Of a stretch of 64,000 nt of DNA, positions 3,101 to 42,137 are shown piece after piece. Under the pieces are notes generated by a model. That model was not told where the DNA came from. It saw only the letters and a list, made by a program, of their open reading frames with translations, and ran no database searches. Each line of letters starts with the position of its first letter. The stretch's first letter is position 1. The position numbers and the translations under genes are program-made. Source of the stretch: an uncultured Gammaproteobacteria bacterium. GTDB lineage: Bacteria; Patescibacteriota; Patescibacteriia; UBA11705; JABHMO01. The stretch lies in contig CAZAKN010000005.1 of NCBI GenBank assembly GCA_964486065.1, forward strand, positions 60 to 64,059. Direction: 5' to 3'.

Positions 3101-3593
3101 CTTGAATCAATCATTGCAAAAAGAAACAATTGATAATGAAAAAGACCGGTTGCCGAGCAACGAAAGTCTGCTCAAAGAACCAAACGACCCTACGGTATTT
3201 TTAATTGAGAATAATGGTAAAAGGCCTTTTTGTAATGAACAAGCCTTTTTATCACGCGGTTATAAATGGGAAAACATTATCATTCGCTCGGATCTCACGG
3301 CTTACCCCGAAGGCGAAAGCATTTGTTATGATGAAAAAATCTCAGTTCCATTACTGACTCATTATTTATTCATGGGCATGAACGATGAACAAGTAAAATA
3401 TTTACAAGAATATTTAAATCGTAACGGCTATCTTTTGGCGGAATCCGGACCGGGATCTCCGGGACAAGAAACCTTTTATTTCGGAGCACTGACCCGCGAC
3501 GCCTTAATCAACTTTCAATCAGATAATCATATTACTCCGGCTATCGGACATCTCGGCCCGATTACCAGACATAAGATCAACAGCGTGCGTTAA
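165..3593 (+). CDS. Large secreted cell-surface protein with LamG/concanavalin-A-like lectin repeats, a Listeria-Bacteroides (Flg_new) repeat and a C-terminal peptidoglycan-binding (PG_binding_1-like) domain
   Basis: N-terminal signal peptide MKSNTLLKLFFITFTAFLIAPSVLALTW. Repeated LamG-type motifs (LLMHMNEASGTISDFSGNGNNGS, GLWHLNETSGAIVDSSGNSNNGT, DEFAVWARSVTDQEI, DEVAIFDRALSESEIENIY). Flg_new-like segment YDANGADSGTVPANQ...FNGWNTATDGSG. C-terminal PG-binding-like YLQEYLNRNGYLL...FGALTRDALINFQ. Confidence 0.6.
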   Translation: MKSNTLLKLFFITFTAFLIAPSVLALTWTTDSQTDFNLGNYQNTAFYSDSVSLKQWSDTEKELPHNETTDVWGIDMSDNILLMHMNEASGTISDFSGNGNNGSYSGSLYSQNGALNSSLGFNGNNTGVALGDFQDFDDIGTGNFAICAWVKIPNSVSTVPMRIAEQYNGNPPFNGLTFHYRPSDNRLLAWTQNSVACRIETTDYNLDDDEWHHVCFGRKSSSELTLYIDGDVALHQTGKTAGDLNSNHHNFAIGYSPQFGQYLDGNIDEFAVWARSVTDQEISDIYQRQTKKYGGANAGEYLSGIFNSGKNSNWATISWITEIPYGQDLPDNQTAESGAFTEGMDMTGNIGLWHLNETSGAIVDSSGNSNNGTVNGGISYNQTGKFGTALDFNGSNGFIHIPHDNSLNPTDKITLLAWLKWDIDPSLGNSYASIINKFADNHYRLQHNNANENFEFAIRTTPNGDRWVDSTTIPQKDKWYLLVGTYDGADLKIYVNGNLENTASHGGDLVTSISDLNIGRRTANDRFFNGIIDEVAIFDRALSESEIENIYLRGVANINLSVRSCDDSSCSGESWTNLGNNLSSPQSLSVSDNQFMQYKFGFDTDDYDFTAKLNSTSVQYNAPPDTPVHSSPLDASSDNILNPILTSSTYSDPETDTHIDTEWQVDDDADFSSPCWERVSSGAETQTTINATNGTFGNESVGKTKLEYETDYYWQVRYKDNGSNNWSNWSTKTYFTTIPEFYIISYDANGADSGTVPANQNKSYNVNINIRSNTGSLTKADSAFNGWNTATDGSGTHYAENAIFTVNADTVLYAEWTSGTCPTVDHALTYNSYPTCGATSCALGYYLSNGQCYFAGGKSSSRKTSSGKGHDTYFIEKFGHRTINDINQGGINILAFPFSSFDFSYTFPYHTNKLNGEIMIEDLDYQNGKVKFKIKPQNESFELNEKGLLFVDLDQDGKSDFALFFNALDSGMADLTLLPLNQSLQKETIDNEKDRLPSNESLLKEPNDPTVFLIENNGKRPFCNEQAFLSRGYKWENIIIRSDLTAYPEGESICYDEKISVPLLTHYLFMGMNDEQVKYLQEYLNRNGYLLAESGPGSPGQETFYFGALTRDALINFQSDNHITPAIGHLGPITRHKINSVR

Positions 3594-3742: not shown

Positions 3743-4498
3743 ATGCAAATCAACAAATCCATAAAAATTATTTTACCGCTTATCGCGCTGACAATTTTGG
3801 TCGCTTTTTTCTTGAAATTTTTCTATCAAAAGAATCAGTCCGAACAAATTTTTGAAGCTCCACGAAAAGAAAAACCAGTCATTGAAGGCGAACAATTTAA
3901 AAACCGTTATTTGGAGGAAGCTATCACAGAGTATCTTCTCAGCGAAAAAAATTTCAGCTGGAAAACTAAAGAGGGAAGTCATAATCTTTGTGTAGTTGAA
4001 AATCTTGATCCGGAAAAAGAATTGTTTCCTTTATTTCTTTGGTCATATTGCGCGGAATATATCATGGAAAATCAAGAACTGAAAACAATCAGTGGTTCAT
4101 CAATCCCGATAAAACTTAATTATCCCAATGAATTATCATATTATGATATTAATAAATTTTCTCATGAAACGCCACGCGATGGAGCTGCTTATGCGGAAGA
4201 TGTTAAAACAATTTTTCCCGAAGATGTCCAAGAAAAAATATTTCAACACGATATTCGTCCTCTGATTGATAAAGCGGAAACTTACGCACTAACCAATATC
4301 ACCGATTGGAATTCCATCAAACAAGCGCTGACCGATTGCCAAGTAAAATTAATTATGCAAACACACAGCTTACATGTAACAGCTACATTAAAAAACGGAA
4401 CTACCATAAAAGCCAAGGAGCCGGCAATTGATGATATTTTTGAGCTTGTTAAAACACATGAAAAAAAATGCGGTAAAATTGAACTTGCCACTGAATAG
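3743..4498 (+). CDS. Hypothetical N-terminally membrane-anchored protein
   Basis: Long ORF with an N-terminal hydrophobic helix (IILPLIALTILVAFFLKFF). No recognisable domain. Confidence 0.35.
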   Translation: MQINKSIKIILPLIALTILVAFFLKFFYQKNQSEQIFEAPRKEKPVIEGEQFKNRYLEEAITEYLLSEKNFSWKTKEGSHNLCVVENLDPEKELFPLFLWSYCAEYIMENQELKTISGSSIPIKLNYPNELSYYDINKFSHETPRDGAAYAEDVKTIFPEDVQEKIFQHDIRPLIDKAETYALTNITDWNSIKQALTDCQVKLIMQTHSLHVTATLKNGTTIKAKEPAIDDIFELVKTHEKKCGKIELATE

Positions 4499-4537
4499 CA
4501 CACTTATAGAAATTAACAAAAAACCAATCAGCATCTT

Positions 4538-5290
4538 ATGCCCACAAGAAACATCCTATTTTATCCAAGTTTACCATGGAAATTCAGTACTATCTCCAAA
4601 ATTTTGAAAACACTTAATATTAAAATCACAAATAATCATCAACATGATTATCTGCTAGGCATACATTGGCACGACCGAACTTATACTGATTTCAACTGGC
4701 CGGAAAAAACGGAAAAACTTATCTTGAACAAAAACTGCAATAATATTTCCAAAAAACATGTTGATTTAATTCATGAAAAAATCTTGGGCTATAACAGTGA
4801 AATCAATCCTCGCGTTTATGATCGGGAATATGTCCAAAAACTTGATCTTAACGGTTTTCACTTGGGCTTTATCAGAAAACGGAAATCTCGCGCTTGGCCA
4901 CTGTTCTTTTATCAAAAAATTCCCGACAATTCAGTCGGAAATACGGTTATTGAATATCGCGTTCCCGTATTCGGCGATACCGTTCCCTTTGTTTACAAAA
5001 AAACCAAATCAATCAAAAAAAGATTAAGTTACAAAAATTTAAAAGTTGAACTGGCGTCATTTGAGGAAACCTTTAACAGTCAAGAAAGAAACTGGATTAT
5101 CGCTTTTGCCGAAGCAATGGGACTTGATTATGGAGAATTGGATATCCTACGGGACCATCCCACCAAAAAAATTTATATCATAGACGCCAACAAAACTCCT
5201 TTAACTCAGCCGAATAATTTATCAAAAAAACTGAAAAATAAAGCGATAAGTATAATGGCGGACACTTTCAAAAATGTCTTTTTGTCATAA
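4538..5290 (+). CDS. Hypothetical protein
   Basis: 250-aa ORF with no recognisable family. Followed by a terminator. Confidence 0.35.
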   Translation: MPTRNILFYPSLPWKFSTISKILKTLNIKITNNHQHDYLLGIHWHDRTYTDFNWPEKTEKLILNKNCNNISKKHVDLIHEKILGYNSEINPRVYDREYVQKLDLNGFHLGFIRKRKSRAWPLFFYQKIPDNSVGNTVIEYRVPVFGDTVPFVYKKTKSIKKRLSYKNLKVELASFEETFNSQERNWIIAFAEAMGLDYGELDILRDHPTKKIYIIDANKTPLTQPNNLSKKLKNKAISIMADTFKNVFLS

Positions 5291-5306
5291 ATAATCAAAC
5301 AAAAAA

Positions 5307-5338
5307 CCCACTCGTTCGTACGGGTGGGTTTGTTTTTT
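5307..5338. terminator. Bidirectional rho-independent terminator (cccactcg...cgggtggg flanked by A-run and T-run)
   Basis: Hairpin between the convergent CDSs 4538-5290(+) and 5338-5697(-). Confidence 0.55.
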
Positions 5339-5697
5339 TATAATTTGATCCCCAGTCTCTTACAATGATACCTGAAACTTCTAAAGGATATCCCCAAAAG
5401 TTTGGCTGCCGAAGTTTTGTTTCCCTCGGTCCTTTTCAGTGCTTCTTGGAAATACATTATTTTTAACTCTTCTTGAGCTTTTTCAAAATTAAGTTTTTCG
5501 CCAAGATTATTTCCAAATGAAATTGAACTTGCCCGGTAAAAGATCATCACCGTGCAAAAAACCCTTGAATTATCAGCAACACTTGCCACTTCACGATTGA
5601 TGATTTCCTTGTCGTCATTTTTCTCCAACCAATCGTTGACCGTTTTCTCAATCTCGCTAACCGACGCGCAGAAAAACTTAACTTTCTCCATGATCAC
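5338..5697 (-). CDS. Small DNA-binding protein with C-terminal Fis-type HTH (HTH_8)
   Basis: The C-terminus QEALKRTEGNKTSAAKLLGISFRSFRYHCKRLGI matches the Fis/NtrC-family helix-turn-helix pattern. Confidence 0.45.
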   Translation of the reverse strand: MIMEKVKFFCASVSEIEKTVNDWLEKNDDKEIINREVASVADNSRVFCTVMIFYRASSISFGNNLGEKLNFEKAQEELKIMYFQEALKRTEGNKTSAAKLLGISFRSFRYHCKRLGIKL

Positions 5698-5840
5698 TTC
5701 CTCCTAATTTAAATAAAGTGCTATTTACGGTCTATAATATTAACAAAAATAACATTTCATGTCAATTCTTTTCTTTTAAAATTATTAAAAAACTTGTAAC
5801 TTTGGTATAATTTAGGTAATAAAAAATAGATACTATTATT

Positions 5841-6215
5841 ATGAAAAAAGATATTTTAGCAGTTCTCTTGGCGGGTGCGTGGATCTCTTTATCCGAATTC
5901 CTAAGAAATGAATTGCTTTTCAAAGATTATTGGATAAATCATTACAACGCACTGGGGTTAAAATTTGAAACTTTGCCGATCAACGGACTTTTCTGGACGC
6001 TGTGGAGTTTTATTTTGGCTTATGTGGTTTACAAGCTCCTGCAAAAATTTTCCATCGGTCAAACCGTGTGGCTGACTTGGCTGGGAGCGTTTGTTCTGAT
6101 GTGGATAGCGGCTTATAATCTGCAAGTTTTTTCTTGGGGATTTTTAATTTTTGATATACCTTTAAGCTTGCTGGAACTATACCTCGCAACTTTAATCATT
6201 AAAAAATTTACATAA
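5841..6215 (+). CDS. Small integral membrane protein (hypothetical)
   Basis: 124 aa with about four predicted TM helices. Confidence 0.35.
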   Translation: MKKDILAVLLAGAWISLSEFLRNELLFKDYWINHYNALGLKFETLPINGLFWTLWSFILAYVVYKLLQKFSIGQTVWLTWLGAFVLMWIAAYNLQVFSWGFLIFDIPLSLLELYLATLIIKKFT

Positions 6216-6222
6216 TAATTTT

Positions 6223-6975
6223 ATGAAAAAATTTATTAGTCTATCCTTGGCCATTATTTTCTTACTGGCCGGTTGTTCTTTCGGAGGCTCGGAAAAAACG
6301 ATCAGCGTGTCTTTGGACAAACAAATTTATCAAGTAAATCCGGCCAATCCCAGCGCGTTCATGGAAGTTCAAGTGGAAAACAACAGCGGAAAAGAAATTT
6401 TCTATCACAGCCCGCGTCAAAAAAAATCCATTATTGCTCACCAAAAAAATGAGCAAGGTAAATGGATTGCCAAACCGGAATTGTTCACGGTTGATTTATT
6501 TTTAACCGGAGGAGACGCGAAAGTTTACACCATGAAAAACAATGAAACTAAAACTTTTAAAAAAAATTTAAGTGTAAGTGGTGAATTTAAATTGGAATTC
6601 ATTTATTACACAAGTGAAAAAGATTGCGCGAAGGAAAAAAATCAAAACAGTGTTTTCAGTCAACCGTTTATAATCGGTAACAGCGCTGATTTTGATAAGC
6701 AAACAATCATTGATACTTGCCACAGCAATTACTCAGCGACCAACCGGCGCGCCGAATGTTTATATATTGCAGCCAAGGATATTGCCATTACCGATCTACC
6801 CATTTCTCTGGATTTATGTAAGGAAATTGACAAAATGGAGCACAACTTTGATGGTTGCTACCAAGGCGTGGCTCTTGTTCTGAGTAATGCCGGATCACCT
6901 GAATTGGGTGAAAAAGTTTGTGAAAACTATCAAAATAAAGATCTTTATTCGGAGTGTCTCAATAAATTAAAATAA
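6223..6975 (+). CDS. Lipoprotein (hypothetical, Cys-rich C-terminal region)
   Basis: Signal peptide with lipobox LLAGCS. Confidence 0.45.
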   Translation: MKKFISLSLAIIFLLAGCSFGGSEKTISVSLDKQIYQVNPANPSAFMEVQVENNSGKEIFYHSPRQKKSIIAHQKNEQGKWIAKPELFTVDLFLTGGDAKVYTMKNNETKTFKKNLSVSGEFKLEFIYYTSEKDCAKEKNQNSVFSQPFIIGNSADFDKQTIIDTCHSNYSATNRRAECLYIAAKDIAITDLPISLDLCKEIDKMEHNFDGCYQGVALVLSNAGSPELGEKVCENYQNKDLYSECLNKLK

Positions 6976-12230: not shown

Positions 12231-13265
12231 TTAAATTAAGGTATTTTCTTTTTTTATTTTTAAATGCTCGTAAGCTTTGTCGGTCGCCGTGCGACCACGA
12301 CCGGTGCGATTGATAAAACCGAGTTGCAATAAATATGGTTCATAAACATCTTCAATGGCTGACATTTCTTCAGAGGTGGAAGCGGCAATGGTGTTTAATC
12401 CGACGGGTCCGCCTTTAAATTTCTCAATTATGGTTGAGAGAATTTTACGATCTACTTGATCTAGTCCAAGTTCATCAATTTTCAGCATGTCCAAAGTTTT
12501 TTCCACTACCGAAGCGTCTATTTGCCCCTTGTTTTTCACTTCTGCGTAATCTCGCACTCGTTTCAAAAGACGGTTGGCGATACGCGGAGTTTTTCTCGCT
12601 CTTTTGGCTATCTCCAAACTGCAATCATCGGCAAACTCCACGCTTAAAATCTTGGCAGCGCGTCTGACGATCAAGTCAATATCTTCATGATTATAAAATT
12701 CCAAATGATAAACATTACCAAAACGATCACGAAGTGGAGAAGACAATTGAGACAATTTCGTGGTGGCTCCGATCAAAGTGAATTGAGGCAAATCCAATCT
12801 CAATGTGCGAGCGCTGGGCCCTTTGCCAATCACAATATCCAGCACAAAATCCTCCATGGCTGAATACAAAATTTCTTCCACCACTTTGTTCATGCGATGT
12901 ATTTCATCAATAAATAAAATATCGCCTTGTTCCAGATTGGTTAATATCGCAGCCAAATCTCCGCTTTTTTCCAAAGCCGGACCGGTAGTCACCTTTAAAT
13001 TTCCGCTCATTTCCCGAGCAATAATATGCGCCAAAGTGGTTTTGCCCAAACCGGGAGGTCCGTAAAGCAAAACATGTTCAATCGGTTCACCGCGCATTTT
13101 CGCAGCTTTCATAAAAATATCCAAATTTTCTTTAATCTGCAATTGCCCCACAAATTCATTCAAACATTGCGGTCTTAAAGTAATATCCAAAATATTTTCA
13201 CTGTTTTGCTCTTCCGGATCAACCAATCTGTTTTCATTATTTTCATTTAAATTTGACTCTATCAT
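12231..13265 (-). CDS. ruvB: Holliday junction branch-migration helicase RuvB
   Basis: Walker [18 protein letters not shown], Walker [10 protein letters not shown], and RuvB-type sensor/arginine-finger regions. Collinear with RuvB along the full length. Confidence 0.95.
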
Positions 13266-14687: not shown

Positions 14688-15815
14688 TTATTGCTTGATC
14701 GGCATGATGATATACAGAAAGCCCGTATCTTCCTTCCCTTTAATCGTACACGGAATATTATCATCAACTAAACTTATTTCCACCAAATCTTTTCCAATAT
14801 TATTTAATCCCTCCAAAAGGTATCGGAAATTTAAAACCGTTTCATTAACTTCACCTTGATATTCAACTTCCAGCATGGTGCTACTTTCTCCGACTTGAGC
14901 GTTATTGGCTTTTATTTCCAATCCGCGTCCCGGATCAAAAATCAGATTGATATCAAATATTCCGGTTTTGGAAAAAAGCGCCACGGTTTTTACGGCTTTC
15001 AATAATTCCGCTCTGTCAATTATAACTGAAGTTTTTCTTTCCGTGGGAATAATTTGCTTATAATCTGGATATTCTCCTTCAATTAAACGAGAAATCAATT
15101 CCACTCCGCCGATATTGAATAAAATCTGATTCTCCGACAAATAAATTTCCAAATTCGTATCTTCCGCGTTTTGCTCTTTGAAGTTTCCGATTATTCGCAA
15201 GACTTCTTGCAATGTTTTGGCCGGTACTATAACTTTTTTTTCTTCCTCCGAACCCGCGACTTGCAGATTTGTTTCAGACAAACGATAGCTGTCCGTTCCA
15301 ACCAAAGTCAAATTGTTTTTTGCTTGACCGTTAAATGACATTAACACGCCACTTATTTCCGGACGACTTTCAGAAGAAGAAACTGCGAATAAAACTTGAC
15401 TGACTGCTTTTTTAAAGGCGACCAAATCAATTTTATAGGGATTGTTTTTTTCAATCTCCGGTATAACCGGAAAATCATCCGCAGCAATGCCTTTAATATT
15501 GGTTTTATGATTTAAACAATTTATTTTTAAAAAATCATCCTTACTTAATTCCAAAGAAACTTGATCATTGGGTAAAAGATTAACATATTCACTTAAAAGT
15601 TTTGATTCAACCGTAAAAATTCCCGGTTCTTCAATTTTACAACGCACATTACAACGAATACCGATTTCCAGATTAGTGGTGGCTAATTTAAGATTTCCAT
15701 CTTTTACTTCCAAAAGAACATTATTTAAAATCGGTAAGTTTAAATTTTTATTTACCAGATGTCCTACGGTTTGCAAACCGAAGTTTAAATTTTCTTGAAG
15801 GCAAGTGATTTTCAT
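14688..15815 (-). CDS. dnaN: DNA polymerase III beta subunit (sliding clamp)
   Basis: 375 aa with three-domain clamp architecture. N-terminus MKITCLQENLNFGLQTV. Located immediately downstream of dnaA. Confidence 0.9.
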   Translation of the reverse strand: MKITCLQENLNFGLQTVGHLVNKNLNLPILNNVLLEVKDGNLKLATTNLEIGIRCNVRCKIEEPGIFTVESKLLSEYVNLLPNDQVSLELSKDDFLKINCLNHKTNIKGIAADDFPVIPEIEKNNPYKIDLVAFKKAVSQVLFAVSSSESRPEISGVLMSFNGQAKNNLTLVGTDSYRLSETNLQVAGSEEEKKVIVPAKTLQEVLRIIGNFKEQNAEDTNLEIYLSENQILFNIGGVELISRLIEGEYPDYKQIIPTERKTSVIIDRAELLKAVKTVALFSKTGIFDINLIFDPGRGLEIKANNAQVGESSTMLEVEYQGEVNETVLNFRYLLEGLNNIGKDLVEISLVDDNIPCTIKGKEDTGFLYIIMPIKQ

Positions 15816-16086
15816 ATTTATTTGTTTATTTATATTATTTAAATATATATATTAATTAATAATAATAATAAGTCTGTGGATGAAGTGGAAAACTATATGT
15901 TTTGCCATGATAAAAGGTTAAGATTCCTTTGCGGATAAGTATGTTTAAAACATTTTTAAAAGATGTGCGTAAGGTGACGAAAAAGAGGATAAGTTTTAAA
16001 GGATGGGTTATGCACAGTTTTTAGAGGATCTTTTCAACATATTTATAAAAGTTTTTCAGGCTTTTATCTACAGAATATACTCAAGA
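15816..16086. promoter_or_regulatory. Candidate oriC segment (dnaA-dnaN intergenic): AT-rich unwinding-element-like tract plus at least four DnaA-box-like 9-mers
   Basis: Five DnaA-box-like 9-mers: TGTGGATGA at 15875-15883; TTATCCGCA (reverse complement) at 15930-15938; TTATCCTC-type (reverse complement) at 15986-15994; TTATGCACA at 16008-16016; TTATCTACA at 16064-16072. Four of the five differ from the TTATCCACA consensus at one position; the box at 15986-15994 has two mismatches. The AT-only run 15836-15870 could act as an unwinding element. Confidence 0.55.
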
Positions 16087-17463
16087 TTAAGCGTACATTT
16101 TTTGTTTTAAAAGGTTGATTTCTTGGCGGACCTTTTCATCCAACTCTATTATTTTATTTATTTTTTCAAAGGCGTGCATGGCTGTGGTGTGATCGCGTCC
16201 GCCGAGTTCGGCGCCGATCATAGGATATGAGCAACCCATTTCTTCGCGCATTAAGTACATCATGATTTGTCTAGGGAAAGCTAAGCGTTTTTCACGACTT
16301 TTGCCGAGCAAGTCATCGTGGCTTATTTCATAAAATTCGGCAATTAAAGACATTAGTTGTTTGGGTGAAACATTACCGCCTTTTTTACTGGAATTGGAAA
16401 GTGAAAACAAAATCTTTTTTACATTTTCCAAGGTTGGGGTAATTTTGTTCAATTGATAATATGCGATTATTTTATTTAAAGCGCCTTCAAGTTCTCTAAT
16501 ATTATTTTGAATGTTTAAAGTCAGATATTGAATAATATCTCTTTCCAATTCAAATTCTTTTTCCACGCACTTCATTTCCAAAATGGCGATACGCGTTTCC
16601 AAGTCCGGTTGAGAAATATCAGCAATCATGCCCCATTCAAAACGAGTTAGCAAACGATCTTCCAGCGTGGGAATGGCTTTTGGCGGACGATCCGAGGTTA
16701 AGACAATTTGCTTTCCGCGCTGGTGTAAATCATTAAAAGTATGAAAAAAAGCTTCTTGCGTGCCTTCTTTTCCGGTTAGGAATTGAATATCGTCAATAAG
16801 TAAAACATCCGGAGTGCGATAAGTGTTGATAAAATCAGCCATTTTGCCGGAGGAAATGGAAGAAATAAAATCATTCGTAAATTTTTCACAAGTTACATAC
16901 AGAATTTTATGATTTTCATTTCGATCTTTGATTTTGTGACCAATGGCCTGCATGAGATGAGTTTTGCCCAAGCCTACGCCACCGTAGATAAATAAAGGAT
17001 TGTAGTTTTCTCCGGGTTTTTCCGCTACAGCGTGTGAAGCGGCATGCGCCAATTCATTGGCTTTGCCCACGATGAAGTTTTGAAAAATATAACGAGAATT
17101 TAGAGTTGAAGTTGTTGTTTGAAAAGAAGGTATGGATATCGTCGGTTGTTCTTTCGGTTGTTCGGAAATGGATTTTTTTAATTCGTTAGCTTGTTTTTCG
17201 TATTCTTTTTTGGTTTGAACTTTGTAAGTGATTTCTTTGACGCGATCTTCAGATTGCGTTTGGATTATTTTGTAAATTTGAGAATGATATTTTTGTTTGA
17301 GCCAAGCTTGTGAAAAAGTGTTGGGGACTCCAACGACAATGCGACCGCCGATATTTTCAATGATGAAAGTGTTTTTGAGCCAAGTGGTAAAGCTGGCTTT
17401 ACTTAAACTTAATTCCAATTCTCCGAGAACGGCTTGCCACAATTGTTCGTTTTTGTCCTCCAT
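16087..17463 (-). CDS. dnaA: Chromosomal replication initiator protein DnaA
   Basis: AAA+ Walker A GGVGLGKTHLMQAIGH, Walker B LLIDDIQF, and a C-terminal DnaA-box-binding HTH domain. N-terminus MEDKNEQLWQ. Confidence 0.95.
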   Translation of the reverse strand: MEDKNEQLWQAVLGELELSLSKASFTTWLKNTFIIENIGGRIVVGVPNTFSQAWLKQKYHSQIYKIIQTQSEDRVKEITYKVQTKKEYEKQANELKKSISEQPKEQPTISIPSFQTTTSTLNSRYIFQNFIVGKANELAHAASHAVAEKPGENYNPLFIYGGVGLGKTHLMQAIGHKIKDRNENHKILYVTCEKFTNDFISSISSGKMADFINTYRTPDVLLIDDIQFLTGKEGTQEAFFHTFNDLHQRGKQIVLTSDRPPKAIPTLEDRLLTRFEWGMIADISQPDLETRIAILEMKCVEKEFELERDIIQYLTLNIQNNIRELEGALNKIIAYYQLNKITPTLENVKKILFSLSNSSKKGGNVSPKQLMSLIAEFYEISHDDLLGKSREKRLAFPRQIMMYLMREEMGCSYPMIGAELGGRDHTTAMHAFEKINKIIELDEKVRQEINLLKQKMYA

Positions 17464-34192: not shown

Positions 34193-35617
34193 ATGTTTAA
34201 AAAAGCCGGAACAATTAAAATATTATTGACTTTGCTTTTGGCTTTTGTTTTTTTAACCGGCGCCAGTTGTACCAAAGGGGGTGATTCTTCCGCTCGTGAT
34301 GCTTATCGTCCCGTGACTATTACCTATTGGCGAGTTTGGGACAATGAAGATGATTTATTGGAATTGATGAATGCTTATCGCGCCTTGCATCCCAATGTTA
34401 GTTTTGAATATCGTAAATTGCGTTATGAAGAATATGAAGATGAGTTACTGAACGCTTTGGCGGAAGATCGCGGTCCGGATATTTTTTCCGTGCATAATAC
34501 TTGGATGGAAAGACATAAAGCAAAAATCCTGCCTATGCCTTCACAGGTTCGCACACCGGTTAAATTTATGTCGGGCACGGTGAAAAAAGAAGAAGTTTAT
34601 GAATTTCGCGCCAGACGCGGTTATTCACCAAGTGAAATGAGAAAAAGTTTTTTGGATGTGGTTTACGATGACGCGGTTATGCCTTACAATTCTGGCACGG
34701 CGGATAAACCGGTTTATCAAGATGTTGTTTGGGGAGTTCCTTTGGCATTGGATAACTTGGTATTATATTACAATCGCGATATTTTAAATACCGCCGGAGT
34801 GATTGAGCCGGCCAAGAACTGGACGGAATTTCAAGAGCATGTAAAAAGAATGACTAGAATTGACGGAAATTCGGGAGATATTTTGGTGGCGGGGGCGGCT
34901 ATCGGAACAGGTGAAAATGTAGCGCGCAGTTTTGACATTCTTTCATTGCTTATGATGCAAAATCAAGCGATCATGATTAATGATAATGATGATGTTGTTT
35001 TCAATCGCATGCCGGGCGCTTTATCCGAGCAATTGGAAGTGCCACCCGGCAGAGGGGCTTTGGAATATTATCTTCAGTTTGCTTCACCGCTCAGCGAGGC
35101 TTACACTTGGAATGAAAATATGCCTGATTCTTTGGAAGCTTTTATGGCCGGACGAGTGGGATATTTTTTCGGGTATGCTTATCACAAGGAATTCATTGAC
35201 GCTCAGGCACCACAACTTGATTATGAAATAGCGCCAATGCCTCAAGTTTCTGCCAATCAAAAAGTTAATTATGCCAATTATTGGCTTGAAACGGTTTCCA
35301 ATAAAACCGAAGTTGTTGATTACGCTTGGGATTTTCTGTTGTTTGCCACTTCGCCGGAAAATATTGAAAAATATTTGGATAAAGTCAAGAAACCCACGGC
35401 TTTGCGTTCTACGGAAATTATCAATAAACAATTGCAAGACCCCGTGTTAACGGTTTTTGCCGATCAATTGTTGACTTCTCGAAGTTGGTATCACGGAGCA
35501 AATTCCGCTGAAGCGGAACAGGCCTTCAATGAAATGATAAAAGTGACTTTGCAAGGAGAGTTAACTCCGGAGAGAGCTATGCTTAACGCTGTGGATAAAA
35601 TTGAAAGTACTAGATAA
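34193..35617 (+). CDS. Extracellular solute-binding lipoprotein (ABC transporter family-1 SBP, probable sugar/oligosaccharide)
   Basis: Lipobox LTGASC. Length and motifs typical of SBP_bac_1. No permease or ATPase partner genes adjacent. Confidence 0.65.
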   Translation: MFKKAGTIKILLTLLLAFVFLTGASCTKGGDSSARDAYRPVTITYWRVWDNEDDLLELMNAYRALHPNVSFEYRKLRYEEYEDELLNALAEDRGPDIFSVHNTWMERHKAKILPMPSQVRTPVKFMSGTVKKEEVYEFRARRGYSPSEMRKSFLDVVYDDAVMPYNSGTADKPVYQDVVWGVPLALDNLVLYYNRDILNTAGVIEPAKNWTEFQEHVKRMTRIDGNSGDILVAGAAIGTGENVARSFDILSLLMMQNQAIMINDNDDVVFNRMPGALSEQLEVPPGRGALEYYLQFASPLSEAYTWNENMPDSLEAFMAGRVGYFFGYAYHKEFIDAQAPQLDYEIAPMPQVSANQKVNYANYWLETVSNKTEVVDYAWDFLLFATSPENIEKYLDKVKKPTALRSTEIINKQLQDPVLTVFADQLLTSRSWYHGANSAEAEQAFNEMIKVTLQGELTPERAMLNAVDKIESTR

Positions 35618-36035
35618 TATGTTTAAAAAGTTTTTAATAATTATCTTGATTTGCAGTTGGTTATTGCCTTTCGGCGCAATGGCAAAAGAAACATCGGGCA
35701 ATAATTGTCAATTTGCCAATGATTGGAGCTTGTTGCCCGTAAAGTGCACGCAATCAACTTACAGTGAGGCGATAGAATGCGGTTTGGAGGAATTGCAATG
35801 CACTTTGATTCGTTTTGCCACCATAATTTTACGCTTGGCCGGGTCAGCCGCGCTCTTAATGTTTGTTATCGGAGGAATAATGTATATTCTTTCCGGCGGG
35901 GATCAGGGAAAAGTCCAGAAAGCTACCGGTTTTTTGAAATACGCGACCATAGGTTTGGCCATGATATTATTATCAGGCTTTTTTATCAGAGTTCTTTTGG
36001 AAGTTTTAACCAATAAAGGAGTATCATATAATTAA
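35601..36035 (+). CDS. VirB2/TrbC-like (T4SS-pilin-like) small secreted two-TM protein, paralog 1
   Basis: Signal peptide, Cys-containing ectodomain, then a TM1-GG..(K/Q)..A-TM2 core (AALLMFVIGGIMYILSGGDQGKVQKATGFLKYATIGLAMILLS). Confidence 0.5.
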   Translation: MKVLDNMFKKFLIIILICSWLLPFGAMAKETSGNNCQFANDWSLLPVKCTQSTYSEAIECGLEELQCTLIRFATIILRLAGSAALLMFVIGGIMYILSGGDQGKVQKATGFLKYATIGLAMILLSGFFIRVLLEVLTNKGVSYN

Positions 36036-36036
36036 T

Positions 36037-36471
36037 ATGAAATATAAGATTCTTTGTTGTGTAGTAATATTATTAAGTGTTTTTTTCTTGAGCTTGGATT
36101 TTTCTTTTGCTAAAGATTCGGCGGAAGCTAAAGATTCGGCGGAAGCTAAAGCGATTAAAGAAATTAGTAACTTGCAAAGAGATCTTGGTTTGACACTTGG
36201 CCATAATACCAATATTACCATAGGCAATTTTATCAAAGCTTTTTGGGGAATATTGGGATCAATTTCTTTGGCTGTTTTTTTGTATGGTGGTATAATGTGG
36301 ATGATCTCAGAAGGGGATGATACCAAAATAACCAAAGCCAAAAAGACCATGATTTGGGCGGCTTTGGGCTTGTTGGTTATGTTTACTTCTTATGTGATCA
36401 TTGAATTTTTAATAGATACATTGGGGAAACAGGATATTGGTTTTCACTATATTTCCAAATATATTATTTAA
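36037..36471 (+). CDS. VirB2/TrbC-like pilin-like protein, paralog 2 (contains AKDSAE tandem repeat)
   Basis: Core LAVFLYGGIMWMISEGDDTKITKAKKTMIWAALGLLVMF. An 18-bp tandem duplication gctaaagattcggcggaa x2 encodes AKDSAEAKDSAE. Confidence 0.5.
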   Translation: MKYKILCCVVILLSVFFLSLDFSFAKDSAEAKDSAEAKAIKEISNLQRDLGLTLGHNTNITIGNFIKAFWGILGSISLAVFLYGGIMWMISEGDDTKITKAKKTMIWAALGLLVMFTSYVIIEFLIDTLGKQDIGFHYISKYII

Positions 36472-36501
36472 TATTTAATTTAATAATTAATCATTAAAGC
36501 C

Positions 36502-36888
36502 ATGATTAACATTACAAAAGTAAAAGTGGTGGCCAAAGTCGCTTTTATGGTTTTTCTGCTTTTCGCGGTAGCTATGCCGGCCTTTGCTCAATTAGATTTG
36601 GGATTGGGAGAAGTAGGAGAAGCTACGGAGCTTGGAGATACGGATATTCGTACAACAGTGGGATCCATTATCAATGCTGCTTTGGGCTTCTTGGGCGTTG
36701 TCGCGGTGGTCATTGTTTTGATCGGTGGGTTTAAGTATATGATTGCCGGTGGCAGTGAAGACAAAGTGGCTGAAGCGAAAAAATGGATTATTTCCGGAAT
36801 TATCGGTTTGGCCATTATCTTGAGCGCTTATGCGATCACTACATTTGTAGTTGGCGAGTTGATTTCAGCAACTACGGGAGTAGAATAA
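36502..36888 (+). CDS. VirB2/TrbC-like pilin-like protein, paralog 3
   Basis: Core VVIVLIGGFKYMIAGGSEDKVAEAKKWIISGIIGLAIILSAYAITTFV. Confidence 0.5.
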   Translation: MINITKVKVVAKVAFMVFLLFAVAMPAFAQLDLGLGEVGEATELGDTDIRTTVGSIINAALGFLGVVAVVIVLIGGFKYMIAGGSEDKVAEAKKWIISGIIGLAIILSAYAITTFVVGELISATTGVE

Positions 36889-36900
36889 TCTTCTTAAATA

Positions 36901-36925
36901 AGGGAGGGCTTCGGCCCTCCCGGAG
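36901..36925. terminator. GC-rich hairpin (gggagggc ttcg gccctccc) inside the pilin-like array; possible terminator or processing site
   Basis: 8-bp perfect GC stem with tetraloop. The downstream U-tract is weak. Confidence 0.35.
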
Positions 36926-36965
36926 CTCCTATTTCATTCAGCCATTAGATAATTAGTTTAGTTAT

Positions 36966-37427
36966 TTGATGATTGTTATGAAAAAGAAACTATCTTTATT
37001 GAGTTTTTGCATACTTGTTTTCTTAATGATGGTTTTTGGTTCCATGCCCGCAATGGCGGACAATTATTTGCAACAGGGTTTGGATTATACGGCGAAGCAG
37101 GCGACTTTGATGGATGATTCAGTGGAGGCAGGAGGGGGAAAACAGATTAGTGAAAGAATCGGTTATTGGTTGGGAAGAGTTATGTCTTTTATTGGTATTT
37201 TGTTTTTGGTTTTAATTTTATATGGCGGACTTATGTGGCTAATCAGTCGTGGCGATAAAACTAAAATAGCCAATGCTAAAAGCATTATAATTGATGCCAC
37301 GATCGGTCTTTTGATCACCATGTCCGCTTATGCTATTGTTAACGGTTTATTTGATGTTTTTAAAAATAATAATTTAGGTGAAACTGTTGGAAAAGCAAAT
37401 GTGGAAAATAATAAGAAAATGGTATGA
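36966..37427 (+). CDS. VirB2/TrbC-like pilin-like protein, paralog 4
   Basis: Core LVLILYGGLMWLISRGDKTKIANAKSIIIDATIGLLITMSAYAIV. Confidence 0.5.
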   Translation: MMIVMKKKLSLLSFCILVFLMMVFGSMPAMADNYLQQGLDYTAKQATLMDDSVEAGGGKQISERIGYWLGRVMSFIGILFLVLILYGGLMWLISRGDKTKIANAKSIIIDATIGLLITMSAYAIVNGLFDVFKNNNLGETVGKANVENNKKMV

Positions 37428-37840
37428 AAAAAGTAAAAAAAATTTATCAAATATCATTATTGGCAATATTTTTATTTTCATTTCTTTTGCCTTTGCAAAG
37501 TGTAATGGCTCAGGGAGATAGCGCACAGGAAATGGCTGACCAGGGATTGCAAGTATCTGCCGGCAAAGCCGGATTGACCGCAGCGCCGGTGGAACAAATA
37601 GTGGGAAATATTATTGGTTATATGTTAAGTTTTATAGGCTTGGTTTTGCTTGTAATGATTGTTTACGGTGGTATTTTGTGGTTGACGGCCGGCGGCAAAT
37701 CTGACCAATTGGAAAAAGCCAAATCGGTTTTGGCTAATGCGGTTATCGGTTTGGCTATAGTTTTGTTGGCCTATAGTTTTACTTTCTATGTTACTTCTCG
37801 TTTTACCGCAGCCACTCAAACTACAGAACAAACTCCTTAA
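37424..37840 (+). CDS. VirB2/TrbC-like pilin-like protein, paralog 5
   Basis: Core MIVYGGILWLTAGGKSDQLEKAKSVLANAVIGLAIVLLAYSF. Its start overlaps the previous stop (ATGA). Confidence 0.5.
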   Translation: MKKVKKIYQISLLAIFLFSFLLPLQSVMAQGDSAQEMADQGLQVSAGKAGLTAAPVEQIVGNIIGYMLSFIGLVLLVMIVYGGILWLTAGGKSDQLEKAKSVLANAVIGLAIVLLAYSFTFYVTSRFTAATQTTEQTP

Positions 37841-37848
37841 TTATACCT

Positions 37849-38259
37849 ATGAAATATTTAATTAATTCAAAAGTAAAAAGTTTTACAGTTATTATTGCGA
37901 TTTTTTGTATTTTACTATTAGGTTTTGGATCTGTTGTATCAGCGCAAGATCCGCAAAGTAAACTGCAAGGAGCGTATAAAGCATCATTTGGTCAAGAATT
38001 GAATGATCCGGAAAACCTTTTCACTCAGCAAGTCGGTGGTATTATTAGGATTATTTTAGCTACAGTGGGTACGGTGTTTGTGGTTGTTTTAGTTTACGCG
38101 GGATATTTGTGGTTAACGGCCGGTGGTAATGATACGCAACTGGCCAAGGCGAAAAGTTTAATGATCAATGGAGTCATTGGTTTGGCCATAACTTTGGCCG
38201 CGTATTTGATTTCCGATTATGTCTTTATTCGTTTGGTGGCGTCCACGGTCGGAGGATAA
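37849..38259 (+). CDS. VirB2/TrbC-like pilin-like protein, paralog 6
   Basis: Core VLVYAGYLWLTAGGNDTQLAKAKSLMINGVIGLAITLAAYLISDYV. Confidence 0.5.
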   Translation: MKYLINSKVKSFTVIIAIFCILLLGFGSVVSAQDPQSKLQGAYKASFGQELNDPENLFTQQVGGIIRIILATVGTVFVVVLVYAGYLWLTAGGNDTQLAKAKSLMINGVIGLAITLAAYLISDYVFIRLVASTVGG

Positions 38260-38261
38260 AT

Positions 38262-38711
38262 ATGAAAATGAAAAAAATAATATTTATTTTAATTATTATC
38301 ATGTTGGTCGTGCCGTTTTTTTCACAAGCGGCGGGAACTTTTGATCCGAAAGGAGATTTAGCGCAAGCTGAAAAGGGACTTTATCAAGGCGCTCAGCCCA
38401 CTTCTTTACCGGTATATATCGGGATGATTATCAGATATGTTTTGGGGACTGTGGGAGTTGTTTTAACCGTAATTATCGTTTATGCAGGATTTTTATGGCT
38501 GACGGCCGGTGGTAATTCAGACCAAGTCGGAAAAGCTAAAAAATTATTAATTAACGGTTTTGTCGGGTTATTGATTACTTTGGGGGCGAATTCAATAGCA
38601 CATTTTGTTATTGACAGATTAACTGATAATTCGCAACCAAATGAATGGGTGGAAATAGGTGAACAACCATATAAACCTTTAAGCGAACAAGTAAGAGACG
38701 GAGATTTATGA
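38262..38711 (+). CDS. VirB2/TrbC-like pilin-like protein, paralog 7
   Basis: Core IIVYAGFLWLTAGGNSDQVGKAKKLLINGFVGLLITLGANSIAHFV. Confidence 0.5.
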   Translation: MKMKKIIFILIIIMLVVPFFSQAAGTFDPKGDLAQAEKGLYQGAQPTSLPVYIGMIIRYVLGTVGVVLTVIIVYAGFLWLTAGGNSDQVGKAKKLLINGFVGLLITLGANSIAHFVIDRLTDNSQPNEWVEIGEQPYKPLSEQVRDGDL

Positions 38712-39115
38712 AAAAGATATTATTAATTTTTTTAATTGTCAGCATATTGTTTTCATTAAAAATTGTCCCTGCGGAGGCTAAGAGTGGGCAAGACTTTGTT
38801 AATGATTTACGACAGGGTTCGGAAAATGTGGGTGCCAAGGGGTTCGGAGAAACCGGTGGAAGTAGCCAGTTGACATATAGAATCGGTACTTGGATTCAAA
38901 TAGTCTTGGGTACTTTGGGTATAATTGTGGTGGTAATTATCCTTTACGCCGGCTTTTTATGGATGACCGCCGGAGGCAATACCGATCAAGTCGGGAAAGC
39001 TAAAAGCTTATTGATCAACGGAGCAATAGGATTGCTTATAGCCATTAGTGCGTATGCCATAACGGATTTTGTTCTGGATAGGTTTGTGGAAGACGCTCAA
39101 GTTCAAGAGCGTTGA
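38708..39115 (+). CDS. VirB2/TrbC-like pilin-like protein, paralog 8
   Basis: Core IILYAGFLWMTAGGNTDQVGKAKSLLINGAIGLLIAISAYAITDFV. Confidence 0.5.
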   Translation: MKKILLIFLIVSILFSLKIVPAEAKSGQDFVNDLRQGSENVGAKGFGETGGSSQLTYRIGTWIQIVLGTLGIIVVVIILYAGFLWMTAGGNTDQVGKAKSLLINGAIGLLIAISAYAITDFVLDRFVEDAQVQER

Positions 39116-39164
39116 TTGAAATATTAAATATTTGCTATAATATTTTTAATAATAATTAAAAAGA

Positions 39165-39566
39165 TTGCGTTTTATGAAAAATATTTTTATTGTTTTGGCC
39201 ATGCTGTTCTTGGTTTTGTTCAGCGCCAACGCGGTTTTCGCTATCAGCGATGATGTCGCCAGGGAAATAAGAGGAGGAGCCGATACTATCGGTAATGTGG
39301 GATTTGGAGAGTCAAGTGGTGAAGGAGAATTATTGTCAAACAGAATCGGCGGAATAATTAAAGCGGCTTTGGGCTTGGTGGGTGTTATCGTAGTGGTGAT
39401 AATTGTTTACGCCGGCTTTTTATGGATGACCGCCGGAGGCAATACCGATCAAGTTGGGAAAGCCAAAAGCTGGTTGATTAACGGTGTTATCGGTTTGGTT
39501 TTGGTTTTAAGCGCTTACGCTATCACGGATTTTGTTATCAGCAGATTGATTGAAGCATCCGCATAA
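39165..39566 (+). CDS. VirB2/TrbC-like pilin-like protein, paralog 9
   Basis: Core IIVYAGFLWMTAGGNTDQVGKAKSWLINGVIGLVLVLSAYAITDFV. Shares a 48-nt identical DNA stretch with paralog 8. Confidence 0.5.
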   Translation: MRFMKNIFIVLAMLFLVLFSANAVFAISDDVAREIRGGADTIGNVGFGESSGEGELLSNRIGGIIKAALGLVGVIVVVIIVYAGFLWMTAGGNTDQVGKAKSWLINGVIGLVLVLSAYAITDFVISRLIEASA

Positions 39567-39581
39567 ATATCATATTAAAAA

Positions 39582-39620
39582 AGCTCCCCTCCAAGCATGG
39601 ATAAGGGGAGCTTTTTATTT
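39582..39620. terminator. Bidirectional terminator hairpin (agctcccct ... aggggagct + T-run)
   Basis: 9-bp perfect stem between the end of the pilin-like array (+) and the end of the PGI/PMI gene (-). Confidence 0.5.
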
Positions 39621-39645
39621 TACACGAGAGGCGCGAGCTTCTCGA

Positions 39646-40653
39646 TTATTTCAACTGTTTTTTAAAGTGTTCCACCAGTTCCACGGGTGCCGGATCAATA
39701 CCTTTGTTTATGGCCAACCGATAAGAAGTCCATAATCCCAAAGACAAAGTTTGTAAAAATTTATCAAAGGCATCATCTCCCGGCATAGTAATGATTTTCG
39801 TGGCAATTTTATTGCCTAAAATATTTTGAAAAACTTGCATGCGCTTTTTATTTCTTTCAGCTGTTTGATTGTCTTGCAAAATAATAATTTGATAATCAGC
39901 CAAAAGGTCGGTAAATCCCACCATTTCATTATGATTCAATTCCGGAAAAACATTATAAAAACTCTGAGTTTTGGCGTTTTCGTTAAAATTGATTTTCCAG
40001 ACCATGGCCAATGCTTGCCAAGTCGTATCGGTATAGATAAGCGGAATTTTGCCGTTCAGATCGGTGGCCAGATCCTCCGCGACTTCAAGTAAATCAATAT
40101 TTTGCGCCAGCGCTTTTTCAATGCTTTGGTTAAGTTGATTATAATCAAGAGCAATACAACCGCTATCATGCATTATTTTCAATAACGCGCCGATGGTGTA
40201 ACCATAGGCCAAGCGAGGCTGTTTCGTGTCCGGAATGGAGATATAAGCATAATTGTTTTGTTCCGCGATTCTTTTCAGTTCTCCGTCATGAGCAAAAATA
40301 ATTATTTGTTTTAAACCGATTTTTTTCGCTTCTTGCAAAGTAGCTAAAGTTTCTTCCGTATTGCCGGAATATGAATTAAAGATTCCGATCCAATTCTCAT
40401 CAACTTCCGCTGGTAAACTGTAATTTTTATTGATAATGAATTTTTGTTTTAACGATTCTTTTAAATGAGGTAAAAGCATTAAAAAAAGATCGGCCGGTAA
40501 GGCTGATCCTCCCATTCCACAGAATACAATATTAGCATCTTTGGCGGTTAGCTTTAAATTAACTTCGGCAAACGCATTTTTAAATTGATTTGGTAAGTTC
40601 TCAATTATTGAGTGGATATTTTGAGAATCCAAATTGTTTTGCGTTTTTGGCAT
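39646..40653 (-). CDS. Bifunctional phosphoglucose/phosphomannose isomerase (SIS-domain, archaeal-type PGI/PMI family)
   Basis: SIS motif IVFCGMGGSALPADLF. 335 aa, collinear with the bifunctional PGI/PMI family. Confidence 0.65.
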   Translation of the reverse strand: MPKTQNNLDSQNIHSIIENLPNQFKNAFAEVNLKLTAKDANIVFCGMGGSALPADLFLMLLPHLKESLKQKFIINKNYSLPAEVDENWIGIFNSYSGNTEETLATLQEAKKIGLKQIIIFAHDGELKRIAEQNNYAYISIPDTKQPRLAYGYTIGALLKIMHDSGCIALDYNQLNQSIEKALAQNIDLLEVAEDLATDLNGKIPLIYTDTTWQALAMVWKINFNENAKTQSFYNVFPELNHNEMVGFTDLLADYQIIILQDNQTAERNKKRMQVFQNILGNKIATKIITMPGDDAFDKFLQTLSLGLWTSYRLAINKGIDPAPVELVEHFKKQLK

Positions 40654-40913
40654 AAGAAAAAAATGAGGTATAAATTAAACTTATCAAATCGTTTTGATTC
40701 CTGCAAAGCATTTATTCACATATTACGGATGAATCCGTTGATTTTCCGCAGGTTGACGGGATCCGATAAAATTTGTTTGACAGCTTGATTTTCAGCTTGG
40801 TATTTGATATGATTTAAATGCTATTTTTAGCTTAATTTTGTAATAATTAATGAGAATAAACAGGGAAAGTTAATATTAATCAATCAAATATTAACTTTTT
40901 TGCATTTAACAAT

Positions 40914-41645: not shown

Positions 41646-42137
41646 ATGTCAAAAATAATTTTGGGCGTTGATCCCGGCTATGGCATCACTGGATATGGAA
41701 TTTTACAAGTCAACGGTTCCCAAATGAAATGTTTGCAATATGGAGTAATAACAACTCCGGCTGAAGTTGATTTTGCTTGGCGTTTGCATGATTTACACAA
41801 TGATTTGAAAAAAATAATTATGCAATACAAGCCCAATGTTGTGGCGGTTGAAGAATTGTTTTTTTATAAAAATGTAAAAACAGCCATTAATGTCGGACAA
41901 GCCAGAGGCGTGATTATGTTAACCGCCATGCTCGCCAAACTACCTGTTTTGGAATGTACGCCTTTGCAAGTCAAGCAAGCCATAACCGGATACGGTAAGG
42001 CCGATAAGTCCCAGGTTCAGCAAATGGTGAAAAATTTTTTAAAACTTGAAAACATACCCAAACCGGATGATGCCGCCGATGCTTTGGCGGTTGCCATTTG
42101 GGCCGCGCACGCGGAAAAACTAACAAAACATTCTTAA
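41646..42137 (+). CDS. ruvC: Crossover junction endodeoxyribonuclease RuvC
   Basis: ILGVDPGYGITGYGIL RNase-H-like fold start and catalytic acidic residues. 163 aa. Confidence 0.9.
   Translation: MSKIILGVDPGYGITGYGILQVNGSQMKCLQYGVITTPAEVDFAWRLHDLHNDLKKIIMQYKPNVVAVEELFFYKNVKTAINVGQARGVIMLTAMLAKLPVLECTPLQVKQAITGYGKADKSQVQQMVKNFLKLENIPKPDDAADALAVAIWAAHAEKLTKHS

Follow-up and report, generated by a model that had tools for sequence, protein, structure and literature searches.

Nine same-strand, closely packed open reading frames (ORFs; p1 to p9, 128-149 aa) at 35619-39566 form a tandem array of VirB2-like pilin genes in the 64-kb stretch of Patescibacteria DNA considered here, which is referred to throughout as the window. 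The last two genes of this array, p8 and p9, share a short tract that is identical at the nucleotide level, between flanks in which the two genes are strongly diverged. The tract is very probably the footprint of a recent, short, non-reciprocal gene conversion between two old tandem paralogs, in which sequence probably passed from p8 to p9. An earlier note on this DNA had offered either gene conversion or very recent duplication as its origin; synonymous identity restricted to the core, permutation tests and incongruence with a related array (L037) all argue for the former.

Extent of the shared tract

The two genes and the features of the tract are as follows.

38708-39115, forward strand: p8, 135 aa, PF18895 at 33.3 bits (cutoff 26.6); its start overlaps the p7 stop in an ATGA
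38943-38991, forward strand: exact 49-nt tract, p8 copy (codons ..L-YAGFLWMTAGGNTDQ-V..)
38943-39008, forward strand: maximal extent of the putative conversion tract in p8, 66 nt with 2 mismatches to p9
39174-39566, forward strand: p9, 130 aa, PF18895 at 43.8 bits; final gene of the array
39406-39454, forward strand: exact 49-nt tract, p9 copy
39406-39471, forward strand: maximal extent of the putative conversion tract in p9, 66 nt, including Thr91 and Ser99
39455, forward strand: first mismatch past the tract (p9 GTT, p8 GTC); polymorphic, with C in a 99.6%-identical European Nucleotide Archive (ENA) contig

The exact repeat is 49 nt long, and its copies lie 463 nt apart. The earlier note had reported a 48-mer. 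The window does hold exactly two copies of it, at 38944-38991 and 39407-39454 (1 nt lower than given there), and one further identical nucleotide extends it leftward. The note had also counted about 71 of 78 identical nucleotides over the core; the high-identity stretch was found, but its best 78-nt window holds 73/78. The repeat is the longest exact direct repeat within the window, and the only other one of at least 20 nt is a tandem duplication inside p2. Of the 36 paralog pairs, the 35 others have no exact in-register run longer than 15 nt. The flanks are diverged, as had been claimed: nucleotide identity between p8 and p9 is 0.97 over a 63-nt core versus 0.53 in the N-terminal flank and 0.62 in the C-terminal flank. 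Because non-synonymous differences stand at both ends of the tract (in p8 at 38942, CTT/GTT, and at 39009-39010, TTA/TGG), it spans at most 66 nt.

Codon and permutation tests

The core identity might merely reflect conserved amino acids and codon bias. A codon-aware comparison did not bear this out, since core codon identity exceeds what either would give. Where p8 and p9 encode the same amino acid by a degenerate codon, the codons are identical in 17/19 cases within the 21-codon core (YAGFLWMTAGGNTDQVGKAKS) and in 18/45 elsewhere (Fisher P=2e-4); set against the flanks within the C-terminal domain (15/32), P is 0.002. Given the amino acids and the codon usage of the window, a match at all 15 codons of YAGFLWMTAGGNTDQ has a probability of 6.6e-6. 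For at least 17/19 identical codons it is 9.7e-6, or about 3e-4 when corrected for 36 pairs. When run lengths are permuted over synonymous codons, P is 0.003.

A GENECONV-like permutation of polymorphic sites points the same way, with a global P<0.0005 for p8/p9 among the nine paralogs and P=0.017 in an eight-sequence ortholog set. None of the other array pairs is significant in this test, and p1 to p7 are without a significant conversion tract. A 15-nt run common to p6 and p7 was considered as a second tract; its pairwise P was 0.004 and its global P 0.18, and it was not accepted.

Orthologous arrays and the age of the p8/p9 split

Very recent duplication of a pilin gene, followed by fast, diversifying divergence of ectodomain and tail while the core stayed unchanged, would also leave an identical core. 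p8 and p9 are indeed the mutually closest paralogs in the window (52-55% aa and 61% nt identity overall). However, their flanks are saturated at synonymous sites (about 40-47% codon identity, as in any other paralog pair), and the 18/45 identical same-amino-acid codons are at this level. Selection at the protein level is unable to erase synonymous identity, so that saturation contradicts a recent origin of the pair. Furthermore, a search of a collection of 5.8 billion proteins places the closest homologs of p9 at 58-66% aa identity, with the orthologs of other genomes (63-66%) nearer to it than p8 (54%).

The most informative comparison is with L037, a fully syntenic locus that comprises genes for an NTP-transferase, a solute-binding protein (SBP), nine pilins, PGI, YebC, RuvC, a PKD protein and ATP-grasp proteins, with array-flanking genes 53-77% identical to their counterparts in the window. 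By position and similarity, p1, p2, p3 (70%), p5 and p9 (63%) have 1:1 orthologs there, p3 and p9 evolving at rates like those of their housekeeping neighbours. L037 also holds its own 8-type and 9-type genes; p8 and p9 are therefore older than the split between the two species. In the core, p8 and p9 share 61/63 nt, versus 43/63 nt for p9 and the ninth pilin of L037 (L037_9). Outside the core the order is reversed, since flank identity of p9 is 0.62/0.72 with L037_9 and 0.53/0.62 with p8. The core thus groups p8 with p9, and the flanks group p9 with L037_9, a phylogenetic conflict of the kind that gene conversion would produce. Recent duplication, the other half of the earlier proposal, is extremely unlikely on this evidence.

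Selection on the nucleotide sequence itself would offer an explanation without recombination, either through an RNA or DNA element embedded in the genes or through codon preference and translational accuracy. No part of the family is more conserved than the motif, and core codon identity exceeds that of the flanks even between genomes (41.7% vs 37.8%, GC3-matched). Against this, p7 writes a near-identical peptide (YAGFLWLTAGGNSDQVGKAKK) with other codons at about half of the positions. L037_8 and L037_9 differ at many synonymous core sites, as do L039_7 and L039_8 of a further related array, so that the nucleotide sequence of the motif does not appear to be constrained. There are also pairs on one contig whose 12-aa core is identical and which share just 6/18 or 7/17 codons. 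The core codons themselves are non-preferred (TAC 22%, GGC 20%, TTA 29%). An Rfam scan of 35000-40800 returned two sub-threshold chance hits only, which indicates that no RNA element underlies the tract, and the 49-nt sequence is absent from all relatives' loci examined. Nucleotide-level selection is accordingly a very improbable source of the identity, and gene conversion remains the preferred reading.

The distal half of the array differs from the stable genes. Genes 6-8 vary in type and length among the window, L037 and L039; this indicates birth-and-death turnover in that half, while p1-p3, p5 and p9 are stable. L039 lacks an 8-type gene. Both L037 (8416-9105) and L039 (3788-4471) carry a sixth pilin of 227-229 aa with an acidic C-terminal extension, which is not present in the window.

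Strain variant and probable direction of transfer

Close relatives of the window are few. The protein search gave no homologs between 100% and 66% identity; exact-protein look-ups found only one ENA contig with identical p8 and p9 proteins; locus L160 (P0009) yielded no closer relative; and blastn of p8-p9 against all 159 loci reached about 71% identity at best. The ENA contig (ERZ1757541 contig_8233, here L001) is 99.57% identical to the window, with 86 substitutions and 2 indels in 20.4 kb. The substitutions comprise 51 synonymous, 24 non-synonymous and 11 intergenic changes, at a transition to transversion ratio of 61:25. This synonymous bias and this ratio mark the differences as genuine population variation.

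The sole difference in p8 and p9 between the window and L001 falls at 39455, T in the window and C in L001, which is the first mismatch after the tract. The exact repeat is consequently 58 nt long in L001. On the simplest reading, the original tract would have measured at least 58 nt, with a later C-to-T mutation in p9 of the window strain. As to direction, Thr91 and Ser99 of p9 lie inside the tract and agree with p8, whereas the four closest p9 orthologs have S at the former and D, E or Q at the latter. This weakly suggests that p8 was the donor and p9 the recipient.

L001 also bears on the possibility of an assembly or polishing artefact, in which reads of one paralog would have corrected the other at the conserved motif. 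Both sequences are metagenome assemblies; the name contig_8233 resembles the output of a long-read assembler, and L001 has two frameshifting indels relative to the window. Yet the tract is present in both of these non-identical assemblies, which show 88 differences of biological pattern over 20.4 kb, one of them at the tract edge. Only a few nucleotides away from the tract, the flanks have already diverged by 40-50%, so reads of at least 100 nt would map uniquely. Without conversion, the core would differ by about 25-30%, the level of other pairs, and mis-mapped reads would not be drawn to it. Analogous tracts also occur in many independent assemblies. There is thus very little likelihood of an artefact.

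Several further differences between L001 and the window concern the array and its surroundings. Of the two 1-nt deletions in L001, that at window position 33612 splits the NTP-transferase into two called genes, and that at 35636 shifts the reading frame over the ~20 initial codons of p1, its signal peptide, so that p1 is called at 118 aa; either pseudogenisation in the strain or errors of long-read assembly may account for the two deletions. Seven substitutions fall in the array, four non-synonymous and three synonymous versus 20:48 elsewhere (P=0.14, not significant). Y37D and M45T in p4 and E36G in p5 (37530) affect N-terminal exposed segments, and K103R in p2 (36344) lies just past the KAK motif, in the final column of the 21-codon core. 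The p4 changes at 37086, 37111 and 37127, two non-synonymous and one synonymous, fall within 41 nt. No paralog-derived patches are formed by the seven array substitutions between the window and L001.

Recurrence in other Patescibacteria arrays

Two sets of loci were compared. For a selected set, metagenome contigs were scanned with degenerate codons for YAGFLWMTAGGN, which gave 120 stretches, 80 of them listed; 125 loci, the window included, carried a match. The unselected set comprised 343 pairs from 34 loci anchored on the upstream SBP gene.

In the selected set, paralogs on the same contig have identical core codons at 287/443 sites versus 593/1310 in the flanks (P=7e-13), and when the set is filtered for same-contig pairs that share the 12-aa core, the values are 63% and 44%. 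L133 is an example (13/15 core vs 7/36 flank), as are L149 and L137; L115 and L074 contain exact runs of 45 and 44 nt. In the unselected set, p8/p9 of the window is the strongest of all pairs, and the runners-up are mostly adjacent genes. Among them are the last two genes of L029 (13599-14021 and 14018-14488), with 14/16 core versus 12/34 flank codons identical. Non-adjacent pairs reach 44.0% in the core and 43.0% in the flanks.

Synonymous identity between paralogs is also core-restricted in L005 (8972-9430 and 9607-10032). The tracts of these other arrays (L029, L005, L133, L149, L115, L074 and L137), which mostly join neighbouring genes, show exact runs of 35-45 nt written in codons unlike those of the window.

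Conversion in these arrays, as read from codon identity, is sporadic, favours neighbours and is confined to the motif; it is occasional rather than a general homogenising force.

Weighing of the evidence and a likely mechanism

A number of observations weigh against gene conversion in p8/p9, or limit how far it can be taken. The window offers a single event in a single pair; the tract is very short, and the tests rest on about 19 informative codons. The pooled core excess of the unselected set is small, at 45.7% vs 43.5% for all pairs and 48.4% core vs 44.4% flank for adjacent pairs, and the between-genome excess given above, from between-contig pairs with the same ascertainment as the selected set, is a slight one in the same direction. 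Besides the strain variant, the closest relatives found are at about 63-66% aa identity, none of them near enough for dating or polarising the event; owing to saturation of synonymous sites from one species to another, the direction hangs on two amino-acid states. Finally, both the window and L001 derive from metagenomes, as already stated.

Gene conversion would have proceeded as follows. Protein constraint would keep the paralogs about 70-80% identical in nucleotide sequence at the motif alone, so that only there could copies 463 nt apart begin to pair or switch template, and only there would this be tolerated. In the flanks, a divergence of 40-50% would bring heteroduplex formation or copying to a stop. 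The stretch copied would originally have been 58-66 nt long and would since have gained one or two point differences. The route may have been RecA/Ruv-type recombination or a double template switch during replication; the data fit both. Confinement to the motif would follow from homology, because only there do the paralogs retain such identity, and selection for a homogeneous core would not be required. RuvB (12231-13265) and RuvC (41646-42137) are both encoded in the window.

Position of the tract in the pilin

An AlphaFold2 model of p9, built from a 70-sequence alignment (pLDDT 82.6 overall, >93 over the hairpin), predicts a signal helix (residues 2-22), a lower-confidence helix (26-44), a helix at 51-86, a turn at 87-90 and a helix at 91-129. 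In this model, the converted residues 78-99 would extend from the final turns of the first hydrophobic helix through the AGGN turn into the beginning of helix 2, which is rich in Lys. The earlier note had called this segment the membrane core, a term that fits only in part, since the tract takes in the turn and a polar stretch of helix 2 besides the end of the hydrophobic helix. In conjugative pili of solved structure, the lumen is lined by the corresponding loop. Neither Foldseek against the PDB nor a profile search against PDB sequences gave a significant match to a solved pilin.

Contingency and antigenic variation

The earlier note took this pattern as characteristic of contingency loci or of families of variable surface genes. 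This is not supported: the genes are intact, orthologs are stable, the core effect in unselected arrays is small overall, and the array lacks silent cassettes, simple sequence repeats (SSRs) and invertible repeats.

Programmed diversity, with the locus working like pilE/pilS or vlsE and the core serving as an anchor by which ectodomains and tails are shuffled, nevertheless has some features in its favour. The tandem array encodes subunits of a surface filament, in which variable exposed parts border a conserved motif; several genomes have conversion tracts whose ends fall in the motif or close to it; and distal genes turn over among the window, L037 and L039. It has also been speculated that VirB2 arrays of Patescibacteria aid adaptation to different hosts (PMC12102498). 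Other evidence speaks against it. It was the conserved segment that was copied here, as opposed to a variable cassette. Each of the nine genes is a full-length ORF that has a start codon and encodes a signal-like helix at the N-terminus; silent copies are absent. Genes p1, p2, p3, p5 and p9 retain 1:1 positional orthology, and the p8 and p9 proteins are unchanged in the strain variant. N- and C-terminal halves of the well-conserved genes point to the same ortholog. In all, best hits of the two halves agree in 110/192 cases, with concordance for p1, p2, p3 and p9 and noise among the members that evolve fast, and this comparison speaks neither for nor against mosaic genes. A search for SSRs or long homopolymer tracts and for invertase-type inverted repeats found none, only weak inverted repeats and the 18-nt tandem duplication of p2. 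A programmed contingency locus is therefore a very remote prospect.

A looser version is that the helix-turn-helix motif acts as a recombination anchor for swapping ectodomain and tail halves, or for deleting and regenerating members by unequal exchange. This is very unlikely as well and has nothing positive in its favour. If it were true, the exposed surface of a VirB2-like filament would be diversified for attachment to different hosts, and the p8/p9 tract would be the footprint of one exchange.

The array and its genomic setting

The other genes of the array are listed here; all are ORFs for VirB2-like pilins.

35619-36035, forward strand: p1
36037-36471, forward strand: p2
36502-36888, forward strand: p3
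36978-37427, forward strand: p4
37424-37840, forward strand: p5
37849-38259, forward strand: p6
38262-38711, forward strand: p7

The gathering score of PF18895 (T4SS_pilin; 26.6) is passed by 8/9 genes (28-47.7 bits), and p4, at 26.4 bits, lies 0.2 under it. PF04956 (TrbC) is sub-threshold throughout, with p3 closest (27.6 vs 27.9) and p5 and p9 weaker. In p2, a perfect 18-nt tandem duplication (GCTAAAGATTCGGCGGAA x2.4, 36109-36151) encodes AKDSAE-AKDSAE-AK in the N-terminal variable part.

Signals around p9 and elsewhere in the array bear on its expression.

39112-39141, forward strand: promoter-like site in the 58-nt spacer between p8 and p9, TTGATT-18-TATAAT with a TG upstream; a consensus match only
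39583-39620, forward strand: terminator-like hairpin AGCTCCCCT..AGGGGAGCT with a 13-nt loop, followed by a T-run, just 3' of p9; read in the sequence

A further strong hairpin follows p3 (36902-36921), and ATGA start/stop overlaps join p4 to p5 (37424-37427) and p7 to p8 (38708-38711). The overlaps suggest translational coupling within these two pairs. On account of the hairpins after p3 and p9 (the latter at 39583-39613), the promoter-like site and the overlaps, the array may consist of three transcription units, p1-p3, p4-p8 and p9.

The window is chromosomal DNA of Patescibacteria (the candidate phyla radiation, CPR) and contains dnaA, dnaN, ruvB, ruvC, smc and similar genes; the closest genomes carry the labels Kuenenbacteria, Falkowbacteria or Parcubacteria. 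dnaA (16087-17463) and dnaN together occupy 14688-17463, about 18 kb from the array. This agrees with the published remark that genes related to type IV secretion systems (T4SS) often lie close to the replication origin in Patescibacteria (PMC12102498). VirB4, VirB6 and a coupling protein were not found among the window ORFs of at least 250 aa covered by a Pfam scan or by a listing of Pfam families.

An SBP_bac_1/8 solute-binding-protein gene stands immediately upstream of the array (34193-39566 region) as a partner whose synteny is conserved. Of the 34 genome loci in which the SBP was found (L003-L036), most have 3-9 PF18895-like genes after it, and this synteny spans many Patescibacteria lineages, with SBP identity falling to about 30%. 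Permease and ATPase genes are not adjacent to the SBP gene of the window.

Two observations lie outside the array. Three ORFs of about 250 aa at 3743-6975 were considered as paralogs and proved unrelated (17-22% identity). A 1142-aa protein encoded at 165-3593 contains two Laminin_G_3 domains, an N-terminal domain like the receptor-binding domain of clostridial neurotoxins and a peptidoglycan-binding domain, and is a candidate large surface or adhesion protein.

Comparison with known systems

VirB2-like pilin arrays are widespread in Patescibacteria; 441 tandem arrays of 2-11 genes have been described in 383 assemblies, with within-array identity averaging 25% and reaching at most 54%, and a pilin gene lies near virB4 in 1135/1948 assemblies (PMC12102498). 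According to work cited in PMC12102498, one such array is essential in an epibiont that has been cultivated. The array of the window resembles them in family (PF18895/PF04956), tandem layout, low within-array identity and chromosomal location near dnaA, and the 52-55% identity of p8 and p9 is at the top of the published range. Unlike those that are often near virB4, it follows a conserved SBP gene. Gene conversion or concerted evolution between array members is not reported in that study (PMC12102498), and a full-text literature search on gene conversion in Patescibacteria pilins found nothing. In a study of the virB2 paralogs of Anaplasma, the passages matched by a term search mention gene conversion in the reference list only, unconnected to virB2 (PMC3556328).

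The event described here is ordinary short-tract gene conversion in a known kind of array and does not reveal a new mechanism; what is new is that it is unreported for such arrays in the literature searched. The evolution of Patescibacteria pilin arrays has so far been undescribed, and the locus provides a clean, statistically supported case of very short conversion at an invariant hairpin tip. In practice, phylogenies and orthology calls for these tiny pilin genes should mask the core motif, and within-array identity values, such as the reported maximum of 54%, are partly inflated by conversion.

Conjugative pilins of the VirB2/TrbC/TraA type share with the modelled array pilin a cleavable signal peptide, two long hydrophobic helices and a short, polar, basic turn. 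Unlike them, the array pilin carries an additional variable segment at its N-terminus, for which a helix is predicted, and T4SS machinery genes were not found in the window.

In Neisseria pilE/pilS, Anaplasma msp2/msp3 and Borrelia vlsE, variable cassettes are moved from silent donors into one expression site, and conserved segments serve as homology. Short-tract conversion in surface or pilus families, with conserved beside hypervariable segments, is common to these systems and the present array. Here, however, exchange of variable regions was not detected in the window array, the conserved segment itself appears to have been copied, and all copies look expressible.

In tufA/tufB of Salmonella and in rRNA operons, gene conversion homogenises whole genes over kilobases and maintains near-identity. 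The likeness lies in non-reciprocal homogenisation of paralogs, with identity within the genome exceeding that between orthologs, synonymous sites included. The difference is one of scale and frequency: in p8 and p9 there is a sporadic single tract of at most 66 nt inside saturated paralogs.

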